Source of the DNA: Phenylobacterium sp.
Lineage (GTDB): Bacteria > Pseudomonadota > Alphaproteobacteria > Caulobacterales > Caulobacteraceae
Direction: 5' to 3'
Length of the DNA stretch: 64,000 nt
Assembly (NCBI RefSeq): GCF_030645195.1
Contig: NZ_JAUSLW010000111.1
Location: 1,885 to 65,884, forward strand
Shown: piece after piece, positions 40,404 through 48,904 of the stretch
Numbering within the stretch: position 1 is the first letter of the stretch
How the letters are laid out: the number at the start of each line of letters is the position of its first letter
Program-made: the position numbers and the translations under genes
Notes under the pieces: generated by a model
Told to the model about the DNA's origin: nothing
The model's database searches: none
The model's input: only the letters and a program-made list of their open reading frames with translations

Positions 40404-42011
40404 ATGAGTGTTGCGGAACCGGTCGCCGCCGTCGATTTCGACCAGATGCCCACCCTGGGGGACATCCCGCGCTACCACGCGCGGGAGCGTCCCTCGGCGA
40501 CGGCTCTGGTGTTCGAGGGGCGGGAGACCGACTTCGCCACATTCGAGCGCCGCACCAACCAGGCCGCCAACGCCCTGATTGCCCAGGGGGTCCGCAAGGG
40601 CCAGCGGATCGCCTATGTGGGCAAGAACAGCGACCACTATTTCGAGCTGCTGTTCGGGGCGGCCAAGATGGGGGCGGTGATGACCCCCATCGGCTGGCGG
40701 CTGGCGCCGCCGGAAATGGCCTACATCCTGGGGGACTCCGGCGCGCCGGTGGTCTTCATCGGCCCGGAGGTGATGGACCAGGCGCCGGCCATTCTCGAGG
40801 GCCTGGATCCCGCCCCGGCCGTCATCGCCATGGAGGCCGCCAACGCCGGTGGCGCTTCGGTCTATGAGGCCTGGCGCGACGCCGCGCCCGACACCGACCC
40901 GGGCGTCGTCATCGCCCCCTCCGACGTGGCGGTCCAGCTCTACACCTCGGGCACCACCGGCCGGCCCAAGGGGGCCATGCTGTCCCACGACAACATCCTG
41001 TCGGGCCGTCGCCGCTCGGCCGAGGCCAACATGCCCTGGAACAGCTGGGGGCCCGACGACGTCAGCCTGGTGGCCATGCCGGTGGGCCATATCGGCGGCA
41101 CCGGTTGGGGGATCGTAGGCCTCTACAACGGCGCCAAGGGCGTCGTGGCCCGCGAGTTCGACCCCTTCAAGGTGCTGGACTTCATCGAGGGTGAGCGCAT
41201 CTCCAAGATGTTCATGGTGCCGGCCGCCCTGCAGATCGTGGTGCGCCAGCCCCGGGCCCGCGAGGTCGACTTCAGCCGGCTGAAATACATCCTCTACGGC
41301 GCATCGCCGATCCCGCTGGATCTGCTGCGGGAGTGCATGGAGGTGTTCGGCTGCGGCTTCTGCCAGCAGTACGGCATGACCGAGACCTGCGGCACCATCG
41401 TCTACCTGCCGCCGGAGGATCACGACCCGGCCGGCAACGCCCGCATGCGCGCCGCCGGCCTGCCCATGCCCGGCGTGGAGCTGAAGATCATCGACGAGGC
41501 CGGGGCGAGCCTGCCGGCCAATACGGTGGGGGAGGTGGCCATCCGCTCCAGCTCCAACATGGCCGGCTACTGGCGCCTGCCCGAGGCCACCGCCGCCACG
41601 GTGGGCGCCGACGGCTGGCTGCGCTCGGGCGACGCGGGCTATCTGGACGAGGCCGGCTACCTCTTCATCCACGACCGGGTGAAGGACATGATCATCTCCG
41701 GGGCCGAGAACATCTATCCCGCCGAGGTGGAGAGCGCCGTCTACGGCCATCCGGACGTGGCCGAGGTGGCGGTGATCGGGGTGCCCGACGACACCTGGGG
41801 CGAGGCGGTCAAGGCGGTGGTGGCGCTGAAGCCCGGCGCGACCCCCGATCCGGCCGGCATCATCGCCTTCGCCCGCACCCGTATCGCCGCCTTCAAGGCG
41901 CCCAAGACCGTCGACTTCATCGAGGCCTTGCCCCGCAACGCCTCGGGCAAGATCCTGCGCCGCGAACTGCGCGAGCCCTATTGGGCTGGCCGCGCACGCC
42001 GAGTGAACTAG
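40404..42011 (+). CDS. Long-chain fatty acid-CoA ligase family protein
   Basis: [35 protein letters not shown]. Confidence 0.93.
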   Translation: MSVAEPVAAVDFDQMPTLGDIPRYHARERPSATALVFEGRETDFATFERRTNQAANALIAQGVRKGQRIAYVGKNSDHYFELLFGAAKMGAVMTPIGWRLAPPEMAYILGDSGAPVVFIGPEVMDQAPAILEGLDPAPAVIAMEAANAGGASVYEAWRDAAPDTDPGVVIAPSDVAVQLYTSGTTGRPKGAMLSHDNILSGRRRSAEANMPWNSWGPDDVSLVAMPVGHIGGTGWGIVGLYNGAKGVVAREFDPFKVLDFIEGERISKMFMVPAALQIVVRQPRAREVDFSRLKYILYGASPIPLDLLRECMEVFGCGFCQQYGMTETCGTIVYLPPEDHDPAGNARMRAAGLPMPGVELKIIDEAGASLPANTVGEVAIRSSSNMAGYWRLPEATAATVGADGWLRSGDAGYLDEAGYLFIHDRVKDMIISGAENIYPAEVESAVYGHPDVAEVAVIGVPDDTWGEAVKAVVALKPGATPDPAGIIAFARTRIAAFKAPKTVDFIEALPRNASGKILRRELREPYWAGRARRVN

Positions 42012-42042: not shown

Positions 42043-42429
42043 ATGACCGTCAGCCTTCGCCGCCCGCCCACCACCCTGACCATCGGCCAGCTGTGCCGTG
42101 AGTTCGAGGTGACCCCCCGGACCCTGCGCTATTACGAGGAGCAGGGCTTGCTGGAGCCGGCCCGCCGCGATCAGCAGCGGATCTATTCCCGCCGCGACCG
42201 CGCCCGGTTGCAGCTAATCCTCCGCGGCCGCCGGGTGGGCCTGTCGCTCGCCCAGATCCGCCAGGTGCTGGACCTGCACAATCCCGAGGACGGCGACGCG
42301 GTCCAGAACGCCGTGGCCCTGCGCGCCTTCCAGCAACGGATCGCCGCCCTGGAGCAGCAGCGCGCCGAGGTGATCGGCGCCATCGAGAGCCTGCAGGCCG
42401 CCTGCGAACGCCTGGAGGCGCGGCTCTAG
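42043..42429 (+). CDS. MerR family regulator (LiuR-like)
   Basis: TIGQLCREFEVTPRTLRYYEEQGLL..R..Y HTH plus a coiled coil. Confidence 0.9.
   Translation: MTVSLRRPPTTLTIGQLCREFEVTPRTLRYYEEQGLLEPARRDQQRIYSRRDRARLQLILRGRRVGLSLAQIRQVLDLHNPEDGDAVQNAVALRAFQQRIAALEQQRAEVIGAIESLQAACERLEARL
42368..42429 (+). repeat. Left direct repeat (merR 3' end)
   Basis: 60/62 identical to 44173-44234; weaker similarity extends back to 42323. Confidence 0.95.
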
Positions 42430-42469
42430 CGGCGATTCCGGCCGCGCCAGGCCGTCTCGGCGCCTTTCG

Positions 42470-43732
42470 CTACGTCCCGGGCAGGAAGCGGCCCCAGACC
42501 TGATCGTGGGCCTGGGAGATCATCTGGGTCGATGCGGACGTGACCCCGGCCTCGGCGGCGAACCGCCGCCAGTCTGCGACCGCGGCTCGGACGTTCCCGA
42601 CAATGGATTGGATGTCGCGCAGCGCCAGACCGTGTCGTGCGCCAAGGCGGGTGACATGGTCCAGGGTCGGATCCCGCCCCTCGCCCTCAATGTCCATGTA
42701 ATGCTCGCCGCCGGGCCCCGGGGCATAGGTTAGGTCATAGGCCGGCGCGAGGCGCCAATCGCCCTGCGGCGTCATGATGAAGCTGTGCTGCCGGGTATGG
42801 TCGTCGCGATTACAGGCGACGACATTGAAGACCATTCGCCGAAAGGCCGCTGTCACGTCCTGCGCATGCCGCGTGATCGCCGAAGTCGCACGCAGGAAGG
42901 TGTCGTAGCTGGTCGAAGGCCGCCACGGCGGCGTCTCCAGGGCGCCAGCGAGCGAGACCATATGCAGTCGCAGGCCTTGCCCTGGCCGATCAAAGCGCCG
43001 AGTGGCGAAGAAGCCGGGGCCGGTCTTCGCTGGCAACAGGCGATGCTCACTCAAGGTCAGCCCCGCGGCCTGGGCCATGGCGGCATAGGCTTCCTCGATA
43101 GGGCCGATATCGTGCGGGTCGTTTGGGGCGGGGAATTTCACGATCCACGCCTCATCTTCGGTGGCGACCTCGCCCTGGGAAATTGACACCCCGCCCTGGC
43201 GATCGAACCCGACATGCACCTTGGGGCGCGCTCCCCCCGAGGCGCCGGCTAGGCCTGCGAGCGTGTCTGCGAGCTGGTCTTCTTCCCCCTTGAGAATCTC
43301 CGCCGAAGCCTGAGCCAGTTCGTCGAGATCGAGACCTGCAACATCACCGTCTGGCGCCGTCGAGGGCTCGAAGACGAGGGCGCCACGCCCTTGGCGCCCC
43401 ACCAGGGCCAGCCGCTCAAGGACTGAGAGATCTTCCATCCGGACACCGAGCTTGCCCAAGCGACGGCGCATCAGCAAATGGCCCCAGCCTTCCGGGAGGC
43501 TGTCGGCCAGGAAGCCGTGAAGCCCATCGAACTCGCGACTGCGCGCCGCATGGAGGCCCGGTTCGGGCGGATAGAGCAGAGGATCGATGTTAAGCCGCGC
43601 GGCGATCAGGTCCGGGGCCCATTCCAGTTGGGCGACGCCAGAGGCCATTGCCAGGCGGCCGACGGATCGCGGCGCCTTGGCTTCATCGAAGGCGAGCGCC
43701 ACCGTGAGCGGGGCGCCGGGCGCAAGTTTCAT
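42470..43732 (-). CDS. hipA: HipA-family kinase toxin
   Basis: FLADSLPEGWG, GASGGARPK P-loop, NRDDH catalytic motif, LAPAYD. Confidence 0.92.
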   Translation of the reverse strand: MKLAPGAPLTVALAFDEAKAPRSVGRLAMASGVAQLEWAPDLIAARLNIDPLLYPPEPGLHAARSREFDGLHGFLADSLPEGWGHLLMRRRLGKLGVRMEDLSVLERLALVGRQGRGALVFEPSTAPDGDVAGLDLDELAQASAEILKGEEDQLADTLAGLAGASGGARPKVHVGFDRQGGVSISQGEVATEDEAWIVKFPAPNDPHDIGPIEEAYAAMAQAAGLTLSEHRLLPAKTGPGFFATRRFDRPGQGLRLHMVSLAGALETPPWRPSTSYDTFLRATSAITRHAQDVTAAFRRMVFNVVACNRDDHTRQHSFIMTPQGDWRLAPAYDLTYAPGPGGEHYMDIEGEGRDPTLDHVTRLGARHGLALRDIQSIVGNVRAAVADWRRFAAEAGVTSASTQMISQAHDQVWGRFLPGT

Positions 43733-44061
43733 GGCCGACGCGCCGGCGTGGTCGTCGTGCGTCCGCCACGGGCTCGCGAGGCGGACGCAAAGGCGGTGGC
43801 CTGCCCCTTGAGGAGGTCGTCGAGGCTTGACGCCACGGGCGGGGGAAACAGGCCTTCGAGGCCCTCTTCGCACCTCAGCGCAATTGCGGCCTTCACGAGG
43901 TCTTCGATTGAGGCCCCGCCTTCGCGTTCCAGGCGCCGCCAGGTTCTATAGGCGACACCCGCCCGCAGAGCGGCTTGCTGTTGGGTGAGACCCATCCCCA
44001 GGCGCCGGATCTTGATCTGGTCGCCCAGAGCTCGCAGAAGTTCAGATGGCGTCCGCAACAT
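43729..44061 (-). CDS. XRE-HTH antitoxin (HipB-like)
   Basis: LGLTQQQAALRAGVAYRTWRRLEREG HTH; ATGA overlap with hipA. Confidence 0.85.
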   Translation of the reverse strand: MLRTPSELLRALGDQIKIRRLGMGLTQQQAALRAGVAYRTWRRLEREGGASIEDLVKAAIALRCEEGLEGLFPPPVASSLDDLLKGQATAFASASRARGGRTTTTPARRP

Positions 44062-44062
44062 T

Positions 44063-44117
44063 GTCCATATGTGGACGCAAAGGGACGAAATGGCAAGATA
44101 AACGGCCTCATATGGCC
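44063..44117 (-). promoter_or_regulatory. Two related operator palindromes upstream of the antitoxin
   Basis: GTCCA-TATG-TGGAC (44063-44076) and GGCC-TCATAT-GGCC (44104-44117), 11/14 alike; TTGCCA between them on the minus strand. Confidence 0.55.
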
Positions 44118-44172
44118 GATCGATTTGCGCCCTCCAGCGCCGGATCGCCGTCCCCGCAGCCGCCGCGCGAGA

Positions 44173-44234
44173 AGGTGATCGGCGCCATCGAGAGCCTGCA
44201 GGCCGCCTGCGAACGCCTGGAGGCCAGGCTCTAG
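44173..44234 (+). repeat. Right direct repeat (non-coding copy of the merR 3' end)
   Basis: Its terminal CTAG contains the minus-strand stop of the chemoreceptor. Confidence 0.95.
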
Positions 44235-45817
44235 AACTCCTCCCAGGCGTCCTGGGCCGCGCCGCCGTAGCTGGCGGCGAGCCTTTGGGTCAGGGCTCGG
44301 GCCGGAGAGGCGGGCGGTTTCGCCGGCGCGGGGATTCGGACCGTCGCCGGACCGCCCTGTGACGCCGTCCCCACCCGGAACCGGGTCATCAGGTCCGTGA
44401 GGGCCGCCGTCTCCGCCTTGAGGGCGTGGGTCGCGGCGGTGGACTGCTCCACCATGGCCGCGTTCTGCTGAACCACATGATCCATCTGGTTGACCGCGGC
44501 GTTCACCTCCGAGAGTCCGGTGGCCTGCTCCTGGGCCGAGGCCGAGATTCCGGAGATCACCACGTCGATCTCCGCCACCTTGCTGGCGATCGCCTGCAGG
44601 GCCTGGCCGGTCTCGCCCACCAGGGACACCCCCTGGTCGACCTGCTGACCCGAGGCCGAGATGAGGGTCTTGATCTCCTTGGCGGCCTCGGCCGAGCGCT
44701 GGGCGAGCGCGCGGACCTCCGACGCCACCACGGCGAAGCCGCGGCCGGCGTCCCCGGCCCGGGCGGCCTCGACGCCGGCGTTGAGGGCCAGGAGGTTGGT
44801 CTGGAAGGCGATCTCGTCGATCACCCCGATGATCTGGCTGATCTGGCGCGAGGAGTCCTCGATCTGCCCCATGGCGCCGACCGCCAGGGCGACCACCTCG
44901 CCGGAGCGCTCGGCCTGGCCCTTGGCCTCGGCGACGGCGCTGCTGGCCTGGCGTGCGCCGTCGGCGGTGTTGGACACCGTGGCGGTGATCTCGTCGAGGG
45001 CTGCGGCGGTCTGCTCCAGGCCCGCGGCCTGCTGCTCGGTCCGGCGCGACAGGTCGTCGGAGGCGTGCGCCAGCTCGTCGGAACTGGCGCCGATGGCCGA
45101 GGTCGTGCGGGCCACCGCGGCCATGGTGTCCTCCATCTGGGCGACGGCGGCGTTGAAGTCGCGGCAGAGCTGCAGGTACTCCTCCGGCAGGTCCTCTGGC
45201 ATGCGGTAGGTGAGGTCGCCCGCGGCCAGGGCGGCCATGCCCGCGCCGACCGAGCCCACCACCACGGCGCGCTCCTGGGCCAGGGTCTCGGCCTGGGCCG
45301 TCAGGCGTGCGACTTCGGCGGCCTCCAGATAGACCGAGATCGCATAGTCCATGTCCAGCAGGGTGGCCTTGGCCAGGGCGCCAAGCTCCGCGGCGACCTC
45401 CGAGACCTTGGGCCCCTTGGCGCCGAATCCGCCCTTCGGCCAGCGGGCCTTGAGGACCGCCCCGATCAGGGAGCTCAACACCAGGGCGTAGCCGCCGATG
45501 TACCAGCGGGGCTCCAGGCCGATGCGGGCGTGGGTCTCCCCCACCGTGGTGACGGCGCGCACATAGGTCTGGTCGAACTGGCCGCTGGAGATCGTCTCCC
45601 AGTGGCCGACCTGGCGGCTCTTGGCGCTGGCGACGTGACCCTGGCTGGTGAAGAACTTCCGGGTCTCGGGGTAGGATTGAATCTGAGCGTAGAATGCGTC
45701 GAGGGCGCTTGGCAGCTCCCCCATGATCACCGGCTTGGTCCGGCGGAGGTTCGCCTGGGCGTCGGCGTCCAGTTGCATGAAGTTCAAACGGTCGGCCAGG
45801 GAGTCACTTTGAGACAT
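44231..45817 (-). CDS. Globin-coupled methyl-accepting chemotaxis protein (HemAT-like, soluble)
   Basis: [19 protein letters not shown] proximal His motif; [28 protein letters not shown] signalling tip. Confidence 0.92.
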
Positions 45818-46150
45818 GACGGCTTCCTCAGGTTGATCTGCCCATGCCGCGCGATTAATATTAACAGAACAAAAATACAGACTTTTCACTCAACCTATTG
45901 GTTAGAATTGATATGCACAAACATAGATTTATATATCACAAGATATAACGTCGGTATGGATTGGCGTTGAGTTCTCATCTCTCGCCTTAGGCGAAGCTCT
46001 TCCGTTATGACGTCGCGAATCATCTTGTATATATCTGAGGATATAGAGACGTGATGGGCTTCCCGTGCGACGAATCGGCCATTAACCATTGCATGCATGT
46101 GGTCTTTGTGATTTCGAGTGCCCAATGTCGGCTGCCTCACTTTGACGGAT

Positions 46151-46825
46151 ATGAATCCCGCGGCAGTGCGCCCACCGCCGGGCTCGACGGCGCGGAACCC
46201 TGACAAGGCGCTCCTGCTCGTCGAGGAGAAGCCGATCTGCCGGATGGCCATAGTCCAGCTCTTGGCGGAGGTCGGGGGCGTCGGATCGGTGCGTTACGCC
46301 GCCTCCATCGAGGACGCCCTGGACCAGGCCGAGGCCCTCAAGCCCGAGCTCCTCCTCGTCGACCTGTTCAGCATCAACTATGAGTTCGGCGCCCTGAGGC
46401 GGCTTCTCTCGTTGGCCGCGCCCGCCGCCGCGATCGTGGTGGATGACCGGGTCAATCCGACCTTCGCGCGGCTGGCCAAGGACGCCGGGGCGAGCGGCTA
46501 CGCCTCCAAGGACTTCGACCTGCCGCAGTTCAAGTCGGCCCTTCAGGCGGTCATCGTCGGCGGCGCCTACTTCCCGCGCGACATCCTGCCCGACCAGATC
46601 GGCCTGCGGGTTCCCCGGTCCGCCGCCGGCCTCTCGGCGCGCCAGCTGGAGGTCCTCAAGCAGATGGCGGTGGGCAAGACCAACCGCGAGATCGGCGAGG
46701 CCCTGGGCATCACGCCGGGGACCGTCAAGCTGCACATCCACTCGATCCTGCAGCTCACCGGCGCCCGCAACCGGACCGAGGCCGCCCTCATCGCGGGCCG
46801 CTTCCTGGCGCCTGCTATCGGTTGA
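46151..46825 (+). CDS. NarL/FixJ-type response regulator, atypical receiver
   Basis: LLVEE..LLVDL..GYASK receiver; LSARQLEVL..GKTNREIG..TVKLH HTH. Confidence 0.85.
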   Translation: MNPAAVRPPPGSTARNPDKALLLVEEKPICRMAIVQLLAEVGGVGSVRYAASIEDALDQAEALKPELLLVDLFSINYEFGALRRLLSLAAPAAAIVVDDRVNPTFARLAKDAGASGYASKDFDLPQFKSALQAVIVGGAYFPRDILPDQIGLRVPRSAAGLSARQLEVLKQMAVGKTNREIGEALGITPGTVKLHIHSILQLTGARNRTEAALIAGRFLAPAIG

Positions 46826-46894: not shown

Positions 46895-47539
46895 ATGACC
46901 GATTTCCCTGAGGACATCTTCTCCGAGCAGGAGGACATCGATGTCGACACCCTGGCCAATCTCGGTCCCCTGCGCGCCCTGGCCGGGGTCTGGGTGGGGG
47001 TGAAGGGGTTCGATATCAATCCCGATGCCGACGCGCCGCGCCGCCAGGACTATGTCGAGCATATCGACCTGCAGCCCATCGACCCGCAGTCCAATGGCCC
47101 CCAGTTGCTCTACGGCCTGCGCTATCACGCCCACATCGTGAAGCCGGGCGAGGTCGAGACCTATCACGACCAGGTGGGCTACTGGCTCTGGGAGCCGGCC
47201 AGCGGGATGATCGTCCACTCCCTGACCATTCCCCGCGGCCAGATCGTGCTGGCCGGCGGTAAGGCCGAGCCTGACGCCACGCAATTTGAAGTCAACGCGA
47301 CGCGGGGCTCGACAGAGTACGGCATCTGCTCCCAAGGCTTCCTGGAGCACGCCTTCCGCACCGACGCCTTCCGGATGGTGGTGACGGTCAACCCCGACGG
47401 AACCTGGTCCTATTTCGAGGACACCATCCTGCAGGTCCGCGGCCGGCCCGACCCCTTCCACCACACTGACCGCAACACCCTGACCCGGGTGGCTCCGCCG
47501 ACTCCGAACCCGCTGGCCCAGGCGGCCGCCGCCAACTGA
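46895..47539 (+). CDS. Nitrobindin-like/FABP-fold heme-binding beta-barrel (DUF1794)
   Basis: LGPLRALAGVW.G..G, YHDQVGYWLWEP, C-terminal FHHTDRNTL. Confidence 0.75.
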   Translation: MTDFPEDIFSEQEDIDVDTLANLGPLRALAGVWVGVKGFDINPDADAPRRQDYVEHIDLQPIDPQSNGPQLLYGLRYHAHIVKPGEVETYHDQVGYWLWEPASGMIVHSLTIPRGQIVLAGGKAEPDATQFEVNATRGSTEYGICSQGFLEHAFRTDAFRMVVTVNPDGTWSYFEDTILQVRGRPDPFHHTDRNTLTRVAPPTPNPLAQAAAAN

Positions 47540-47614
47540 CGGGGGCTGTCAGGGCGGCGATCCATGCTAGTCAGGGCGCGCGGCGGACGAAGCGCCGATG
47601 GCGTCGAGACGAGA

Positions 47615-48904
47615 ATGCTTGAGAGTCCCTTCACCCGGTCCCCGGTGAACATCGCCGTCATCGGACTGGGCTATGTCGGCCTGCCCCTCGCGGTCGCCCT
47701 GGCGGAGCGTTATCCCGTCGTCGGCTTCGACATTGGGGCCGAGCGGATCGCCGAGCTGAAGGCCGGCCACGACCGCACCCTGGAGGTGGACGCCGCCGAG
47801 CTGGAGGCCGCCGCCGACCTGTCCTTTTCCCTGGACGAGGCCGATCTTGCGGCCTGCAACGTCTTCATCGTCACGGTGCCGACCCCCATCGACCGCCACA
47901 AGCGGCCTGACCTTTCCGCGCTGCTGGCCGCCAGCCGCACCGTCGGCCGGGCGATCTCCAAGGGCGGGGTGGTGATCTACGAATCCACCGTCTATCCGGG
48001 CGCCACCGAGGAGGACTGCGTGCCGGTGGTGGAACAGGTCTCGGGCCTGGTCTTCAACACCGACTTCTTCGCCGGCTACAGCCCCGAGCGCGCCAATCCC
48101 GGCGACCGGGCCCATCGGCTGTCCTCGATCATCAAGGTGACCTCCGGTTCGACGCCCCAGGCCGCGGCCTTCGTCGACGCCCTCTACGGCGCGGTGGTGA
48201 CGGCGGGCACCCACCTGGCCAGCTCCATCCGGGTGGCCGAGGCCGCCAAGGTGATCGAGAACACCCAGCGGGACCTGAACATCGCGCTGATCAACGAATT
48301 TGCTTTGATCTTCAACCGCCTGGGCGTGGACACTCAGGAGGTGCTCGCCGCCGCCGGGACCAAGTGGAACTTCCTGAAGTTCCAGCCGGGCCTGGTGGGC
48401 GGCCACTGCATCGGGGTCGATCCCTACTACCTGACCCACAAGGCCCAGGACGCCGGCTATGATCCCCAGGTGATCCTGGCCGGCCGCCGGATCAATGACG
48501 GCATGGGCGCCTATATCGCCCAGAGCCTGATCAAGACCCTGATCCATCGCGACGCCAAGGTGCGTGGCGCCCGGGTGCTGGTGATGGGCCTGACCTTCAA
48601 GGAGAACTGCCCCGACCTGCGCAACACCCGCGTCATCGACATCGTCCGCGAGCTCGCCGACTACGGGATCGCCGTCGACGTCCACGATCCCTGGGTGAAT
48701 CCCGACGAGGCCCAGCACGAATATGGGGTCTGCCCCGTCGCCGACCTGGCGCCGGGCGCCTATGACGCCATCGTCGTGGCCGTGGCCCATTCGGCCTTCC
48801 TGGAGATGGGTCTGCCGGCGATCCGCGCCCTCGGCAAGCCCGGCGCGGTGCTCTACGACGTCAAGTCGGTCTTCCCCAAGGGCGAGGCCGACCTGCGCCT
48901 CTAG
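47615..48904 (+). CDS. UDP-N-acetylhexosamine 6-dehydrogenase (WbpO/TviB type)
   Basis: [42 protein letters not shown]. Confidence 0.92.

Follow-up and report, generated by a model that had tools for sequence, protein, structure and literature searches.

The DNA analysed here, referred to as the window, is a stretch of 64,000 nucleotides from Phenylobacterium sp. (contig NZ_JAUSLW010000111.1, positions 1,885 to 65,884), which represents contig C57 of a metagenome-assembled genome (MAG) in 232 contigs, designated G000. A hipBA toxin–antitoxin (TA) pair lies in it between a merR-family regulator gene and a convergent chemoreceptor gene (mcp), flanked by a near-perfect direct repeat of the merR 3′ end. 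Comparison of these junctions with their counterparts in related genomes argues, at a probability of about 0.72, that the near-perfect repeat is a secondary product of homologous exchange with an unoccupied allele of the locus, in which merR and mcp meet in a shared CTAG. What appears to be a fresh, integrase-less mobile islet is an old TA insertion that has been inherited both vertically and recombinationally, and the main value of the analysis is corrective: near-identical flanking repeats alone neither date nor explain an insertion. The features of the locus are as follows.

40404–42011, + strand: AMP-dependent ligase (gene call).
42043–42429, + strand: merR-family regulator of 128 amino acids, intact and native to the locus (Pfam MerR_1, MerR and MerR-DNA-bind).
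42323–42429, + strand: left repeat copy, consisting of the final ~107 nt of merR and ending GGCGCC...GCGCGGCTCTAG, the haplotype of every occupied allele.
42430–42469: spacer of 40 nt from the merR stop to the hipA stop, the left end of the inserted DNA (junction alignments; not present in empty sites).
42470–43732, − strand: hipA, HipA-family Ser/Thr kinase toxin of 420 amino acids, intact (Pfam HipA_C and Couple_hipA).
43729–44061, − strand: hipB, HTH_3 antitoxin/repressor of 110 amino acids (Pfam HTH_3).
44062–44126: upstream region of hipB, the right end of the inserted DNA (sequence).
44127–44171, + strand: right repeat copy, the upstream and decayed section of the merR 3′ remnant, with 35/46 matches to the left copy and a 1-nt insertion.
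44172–44234, + strand: right repeat copy, clean core, comprising a 52-nt perfect run (44172–44223) and then GCCAGGCTCTAG, without filler.
44231–45817, − strand: mcp, a protoglobin-coupled methyl-accepting chemotaxis protein (Pfam Protoglobin and MCPsignal; gene calls in the G016 locus).

The repeat search returned a direct repeat of 83 nt at 89% identity (42347–42429 versus 44152–44234, spacing 1805) and a second pair at a spacing of 1804 (42323–42349 versus 44127–44153). Chance similarity was dismissed because BLAST of the two flanks against each other gave E = 2e-27. The figures of an earlier note on this DNA were reproduced on recounting: 60 of the 62 core positions were identical (42368–42429 versus 44173–44234), as were 21 of the 24 in the upstream stretch (42323–42346 versus 44127–44150), which is followed by a 1-nt indel, an extra T in the right copy. 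Likewise, the sequence agreed with its statement that the CTAG at 44231–44234 supplies the TAG stop of both the merR frame (+) and mcp (−), and the Pfam calls with its statement that only hipA and its antitoxin, and no integrase, lie between the copies. The longest perfect run measured 52 nt, and the upstream part of the right copy was significantly more diverged from the left copy than the core (Fisher p = 0.002). A role as terminator was considered for the conserved core and rejected, as its folds did not stand out from those of shuffled sequence (z = 0.77 and −0.50).

The unoccupied form of the locus was found in G016, a complete genome of the same genus, where TonB-dependent receptor, AMP-ligase, merR and mcp follow one another as in the window, with CTAG joining merR to mcp, a single repeat copy and no hipBA. 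On the left side, where collinearity reaches the merR stop codon, it is 93% identical to the window; on the right side, the identity is 91%. Two further empty junctions, L090 and L091, were retrieved by exact-protein look-up from independent assemblies that encode an identical MerR. With three assemblies showing an empty site and one repeat copy, the locus in the window is a true insertion of 1,805 bp. The ancestral merR-CTAG-mcp arrangement with overlapping stops, which the earlier note had postulated, thus exists as an empty site in all three, and these hipBA-less relatives carry one copy of the repeat, not the two that the note had named as evidence against itself. The MerR protein of the window is 100% identical in the occupied genome G155 and in the empty-site G016 (dN ~0), and the three sampled empty alleles share the haplotype GGGGCG ... 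GCCAGGCTCTAG, which differs from the occupied left haplotype at synonymous positions. Among 197 genomes of the genus, merR adjoins this mcp only in G016, G155 and the present genome. The G+C content of the inserted segment (0.66–0.68) lies slightly under that of its flanks (0.70–0.74), and hipBA is present in this genome as a single copy.

The same insertion occupies the same site in G155 (= L022), L083/L084, L081, L082 and L085. The first of these is a second species-level genome, with a HipA 95% identical to that of the window and a locus 95.2% collinear over 11 kb (hipBA, 96%). The others were reached through the HipA protein cluster at 90% identity, and have the gene order mcp, remnant, hipB, hipA, merR and ligase. 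Across the occupied relatives, the hipBA DNA is 90–96% identical to that of the window. The hipBA tree had the topology (L085, L081/L082, (window, (G155, L083))), with support of 91/99 for the last group, and is not at odds with the flanks, as both group G000 with G155 and L083. Among four lineages, hipA is intact in every one and shows a dN/dS of 0.10–0.22, with a dS of up to 0.34, compared with a merR dS of 0.29 between the window and G016. This purifying selection, together with a dS depth like that of the flanks, shows that the pair has been kept for approximately as long as the lineages have diverged. These comparisons indicate that the hipBA insertion is inherited in at least four lineages, has a single origin and has co-diverged with its flanks.

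Alignment of all junctions revealed a single haplotype (GGCGCC ... GCGCGGCT[C/T]TA[G/A]) in the left copies, each of which is an intact merR end. In G155/L083, L081/L082 and L085, degradation affects the full length of the right copy, and these right copies share a filler of 7–8 nt (CCGGTCGG) between ...GGCT and CTAG as well as a GAG>GAA change. In addition, the remnant has suffered lineage-specific deletions, of 15 nt in L081/L082 and of ~34 nt in L085. The two repeat copies of G155 are merely 81–83% identical, and the divergence of ~20% between remnants and left copies equals the expectation of neutral decay over the age of the clade. The claim of the earlier note that the original junction is still readable in the window was therefore not upheld, given that the insertion is common to at least four lineages and its right copy has decayed in all but this genome.

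The right copy of the window is a mosaic. Its upstream part (44127–44171) and the adjoining hipB control region are almost identical to those of G155, down to the extra T and a proline-rich nonsense reading, and this near-identity assigns the upstream remnant to the ancestral occupied allele. From 44177 on, in contrast, the copy bears none of the decay marks common to the other remnants and no filler, and it ends in GCCAGGCTCTAG like the empty alleles. In this respect the earlier note was correct: the right copy ends in the empty-site type (GCCAGG, no filler) and the left copy in the insertion-linked type (GCGCGG). As this genome is nested among filler-carrying lineages, the clean core is derived, and positions 44172–44234 have been renewed by a secondary exchange. 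The core is not a plain copy of the genome's own left repeat, because the latter ends in GCGCGG like all other left copies; nor were the sampled empty alleles the exact donor, as they show GGGGCG at the place of the core's GGCGCC. The GGCGCC state also occurs in the occupied-left type, in the right remnant of G155 and in outgroup merR genes, and the simplest donor would be an unsampled unoccupied allele combining GGCGCC with GCCAGG.

The locus is visibly a recombination mosaic beyond this junction as well. Within 46038–46437, G155 and G016 are 96–100% identical to each other, and this genome is 82–89% identical to either. The allele swap at 46038–46437 affects the 5′ part of a GerE/LuxR response regulator gene and represents recent recombination nearby.

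Other origins of the remnant were tried and discarded. The idea of a foreign, outgroup-like merR allele was dropped as unsupported: a few remnant states do resemble outgroup merR genes, but once more lineages were included, the remnants differed from one another at those sites, and the ~20% divergence fits neutral decay. The sole merR paralogue in the genome (contig C87, 55% amino-acid identity) was no better match. The reverse polarity, with an imported patch in G155 and the ancestral state in this genome, was rejected on two counts: the filler and other changes of G155 recur in L081/L082 and L085, and the present genome has a nested position in the hipBA tree. A 62-residue open reading frame (ORF) at 44046–44234 (+) extends from the hipB control region across the merR remnant as far as the shared TAG; it matches no family, is interrupted by the filler and deletions in other lineages, and is probably spurious as a gene.

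The history that we propose begins with a single, ancient insertion of a self-contained hipBA operon of ~1.7 kb, with a control region of its own, precisely after the merR stop, at the CTAG that merR shares with the convergent chemoreceptor gene. The event duplicated ~108 nt of the merR 3′ end, which left the ends of both genes intact. The left copy remained in a working merR, and the right copy turned into a non-coding remnant and decayed. The occupied allele has since persisted beside unoccupied alleles through the divergence of several species-level lineages, and has passed between lineages by ordinary homologous recombination in the flanks, with hipBA retained by selection or addiction. 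In the present lineage, a later exchange with an unoccupied-type merR-CTAG-mcp junction would have replaced the decayed core and the filler with clean native sequence, with its left breakpoint at 44171–44177 and the 52-nt perfect (60/62) direct repeat as its product. That product would result equally from any of three events: an incoming empty-type junction may have converted a short patch; a double crossover whose right-hand exchange fell inside the remnant may have brought the islet into an empty site; or a looped-out circle may have re-integrated in Campbell fashion.

Several points weigh against this account. No allele combining GGCGCC and GCCAGG without filler, as required of the donor, was found: the three empty alleles in the sample have GGGGCG. 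The left breakpoint falls in ~5 nt of shared sequence (AGGTG) beside poorly matching DNA, which is unusual for a RecA-type exchange; it fits a heteroduplex extending from mcp and halting where homology fades, or a microhomology join, and it fits a classical crossover less well. The original duplication could have been a single crossover of a circle with a merR end or an illegitimate, duplication-generating repair; the filler, if it dates from the original event, argues for an untidy join, and could just as well stem from an early slip in the pseudogene. The flank trees, in which the empty G016 sits with the occupied L081 and L085 and not outside all occupied lineages, were computed from 311–731 nt of a recombining region, so that the placement of G016 is tentative. 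Finally, linkage of the flanks across the 52-nt run comes from the MAG assembly alone.

The earlier note had interpreted the repeats as a direct Campbell footprint: a small circle carrying hipBA and a merR 3′ homologue would have entered an empty merR-CTAG-mcp site and formed a self-stabilising islet that is still excisable. We consider this unlikely, also in a weaker form that confines it to a secondary re-integration in this lineage alone. The mosaic is what such an event would leave, with native 5′ sequence plus GCGCGG on the left, insertion-borne 5′ sequence plus GCCAGG on the right and a seamless CTAG. Moreover, empty sites exist, and the perfect run of 52 nt is long enough for a RecA-dependent crossover; the weaker form would yield a product identical to that of a double-crossover import. 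However, an integrase is absent from the islet and from the contig, in which no PF00589 match was found, the six tyrosine recombinase genes of the genome all being on other contigs. The single origin, with hipBA co-diverged with its flanks in at least four lineages, also opposes it, and the ancestral right copy had already decayed and carried filler, so the present sequence does not show the original footprint. No second copy was found in this genome or in the 197 genomes of the genus, and no hipBA of at least 90% identity was detected away from this site in searches of one genome per species, Joint Genome Institute (JGI) metagenomes, the 197 genus genomes and 5.8 billion proteins. In the same searches, the closest HipA homologues at other sites were 60–73% identical and stood in different contexts. 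Of more than 40 such homologous hipBA loci (60–73% identity), 35 had usable flanks and none of these displayed comparable flanking repeats, the best being 21–30 nt long and hundreds of bases away; no merR-like gene or fragment was detected near any of the more than 40. In eight outgroup genomes, the translated ORFs that follow merR were inspected by eye, without a domain search; they comprised unrelated genes, and none of integrase size was seen.

These results, with no integrase, a single old origin and a right copy decayed in relatives, do not sustain the live, Campbell-integrated islet of the earlier note. Nor do they sustain its proposal that the merR 3′ end is a preferred target, which would rest on one origin, with no further copy in 197 genomes and no merR pieces at the other loci; the search that the note had suggested, for the same hipBA with a merR fragment elsewhere, returned copies of at least 90% identity at this site only. 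An extension of the idea, which we regard as quite doubtful, takes the merR remnant as portable target homology, which recombination with an unoccupied allele has re-armed with the 52-nt perfect repeat: the 1.8-kb addiction cassette would loop out as a circle and re-enter an empty merR-CTAG-mcp site by means of the host RecA alone, and the mosaic would be a possible scar of such re-integration. If true, this would be a recombinase-free, homology-guided mobile TA islet. Excision or amplification through the repeats is mechanistically possible in this genome, the only one in which the length and perfection of the repeat (52 nt) would suffice for RecA-dependent looping out or precise loss.

A donor within the genome was also weighed. 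Under intragenomic gene conversion, the intact left merR would have overwritten the core of the right remnant, and GCGCGG versus GCCAGG would be due to later point mutations. Every state of the core but two bases matches the genome's own left copy, including the GGCGCC that is missing from the sampled empty alleles, and a foreign donor would be unneeded. The two differing bases, however, are in the exact state of 3/3 empty alleles (GCC AGG), and 6/6 occupied left copies have GCG CGG. Two independent mutations to exactly that state are improbable (rough estimate, <1e-3), and conversion is accordingly held to be highly improbable.

Very little credence is given to an assembly artefact or strain mixture, in which an empty-site chromosome and a hipBA carried elsewhere or on a circle were joined through the 52-nt run: the genome is a MAG in 232 contigs, a Logan contig assembled at k = 31 stops inside the run, and a de Bruijn graph with k ≤52 would fit both pairings equally, but metagenome assemblers usually end with k above 52, five independent assemblies from related lineages show the integrated form with unambiguous decayed repeats, and the join of remnant and core at 44171/44172 is supported by reads. 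The support for this join stems from the Logan contig, L086, an independent assembly of run SRR13727526 that equals window 42390–44202 without a mismatch. It spans the join, at which the shared sequence amounts to 5 nt and then at most 13 nt, too short for a graph chimera, so the join exists in the reads. That the contig ends within the 52-nt run is as expected at k = 31.

Exchange with an unoccupied allele, the preferred explanation, places the locus among small accessory presence/absence islets maintained and moved by flanking homologous recombination, a group in which homology-facilitated illegitimate recombination and its end-joining variants are included (PMC3240628). As in these, occupied and empty alleles coexist in close relatives, flank trees are incongruent with occupancy, and the breakpoint lies inside a short homology carried by the insert. 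It differs in that the insert holds a remnant of the target gene, so an exchange with an empty allele can end in the border of the insert and regenerate a long perfect repeat, which makes precise loss possible again in principle. Genomic islands, islets and cis-mobilizable elements (CIMEs) that integrate site-specifically, Campbell fashion, at the 3′ end of a gene were also compared. The locus shares with them repeats that duplicate the target 3′ end, an intact target, an empty site in relatives and an addiction module as cargo. In contrast to them, it has no recombinase in cis and, while action in trans is possible, no sign of one in trans; it reflects one ancient insertion and not recurrent integration, as hipBA of at least 90% identity is confined to one site in lineages that share the flanks; its attR-like copy decays freely in most lineages; and its target is a regulator gene overlapping a convergent gene, not a tRNA gene. 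The architecture thus resembles an integrase-less, CIME-like remnant, yet lacks two features that define such elements, a recombinase and recurrent integration. In the best description, the locus is a presence/absence islet that homologous recombination has moved and edited: an ordinary TA islet of the chromosome, informative for its record of recombination, and not an active mobile element. It illustrates that an insertion between genes with overlapping stops can survive if a duplicated gene end keeps both genes intact, and that the redundant copy decays at an approximately neutral rate while the TA pair stays under purifying selection through host divergence.

The inserted pair most likely works as a type II toxin–antitoxin system, as judged from its domains and gene order. 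In Pfam searches, hipA matched HipA_C with 150.1 bits (cut-off 30.5; E = 9e-44) and Couple_hipA with 31.8 bits (cut-off 22.5), and hipB matched HTH_3 with 25 bits (cut-off 23) besides a weak match to NCBIfam couple_hipB. The antitoxin gene lies upstream of the toxin gene, co-directional and translationally coupled with it, the hipB stop overlapping the hipA start (ATGA), and the hipB–hipA pair is conserved in the more than 40 homologous loci. The HipA motifs GGARPK, NRDDHTRQH and PAYDLT are present and conserved in 97–120 of 121 subfamily members; based on homology, we take them to be the Gly-rich loop, the catalytic loop and the DFG-like Asp, respectively. By homology, HipA would phosphorylate an aminoacyl-tRNA synthetase and thereby arrest growth, while HipB would both neutralise the toxin and repress its operon; the purifying selection on hipA (dN/dS 0.10–0.22) lends this indirect support. 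Within 44062–44126, upstream of hipB, lie two near-palindromes, GTCCATATGTGGAC and CGGCCTCATATGGCCG; mostly conserved in G155, they may serve as HipB operators or promoter elements. A sigma-70 consensus scan of this upstream region gave no promoter-like match, and a terminator scan gave one weak terminator-like hairpin, shuffled sequences giving as many.

The pair is organised like the chromosomal type II hipBA modules of Escherichia coli K-12 (hipBA) and Caulobacter crescentus (hipBA1-3), with hipB followed by hipA, an overlapping stop and start, an HTH_3 antitoxin, a Couple_hipA N-domain ahead of a HipA_C kinase domain, and upstream palindromes of its own, and it is likewise a two-gene chromosomal module in a Caulobacteraceae-type genome. 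Its HipA is very distant from the solved HipA and HipT structures (best Protein Data Bank match, HipT 7ab4, E = 4e-5), and the catalytic loop of its subfamily reads DDHTRQ. By taxonomy, the C. crescentus hipBA modules are its nearest studied relatives (PMC7029023, PMC8545095); a survey of the HipA family is available (PMC8262856). Two homologous hipBA pairs were encountered on single contigs in L057 (Ga0116229_10001092, ~4.5 kb apart), G104:C91:95742-102290 (~5 kb apart) and Ga0255338_1000733 (L054 and L055, ~20 kb apart), so the family duplicates or accumulates locally.

The surroundings of the insertion provided some further observations. The chemoreceptor, of the globin-coupled sensor type, ends in the pentapeptide AWEEF, and the linker before it varies by indels among lineages, G155/L083 having a 6-nt insertion. 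The intergenic region between the start of the chemoreceptor gene and the divergent GerE/LuxR-type response regulator gene contains a sharp G+C trough at 45840–46100 (0.43–0.50, compared with ~0.70). Within it, 45948–46037 is only ~60% identical to the empty-site G016, which marks the control region as hypervariable. In the outgroups L075 and L076 (G050 and G105), the tail of a THAP4-like haem-binding gene and a UDP-glucose dehydrogenase gene come almost immediately after merR. The same two genes are found in the window ~4.5–5 kb further right (46895–48904), and the mcp/response-regulator block as a whole could reflect an older insertion or deletion polymorphism.

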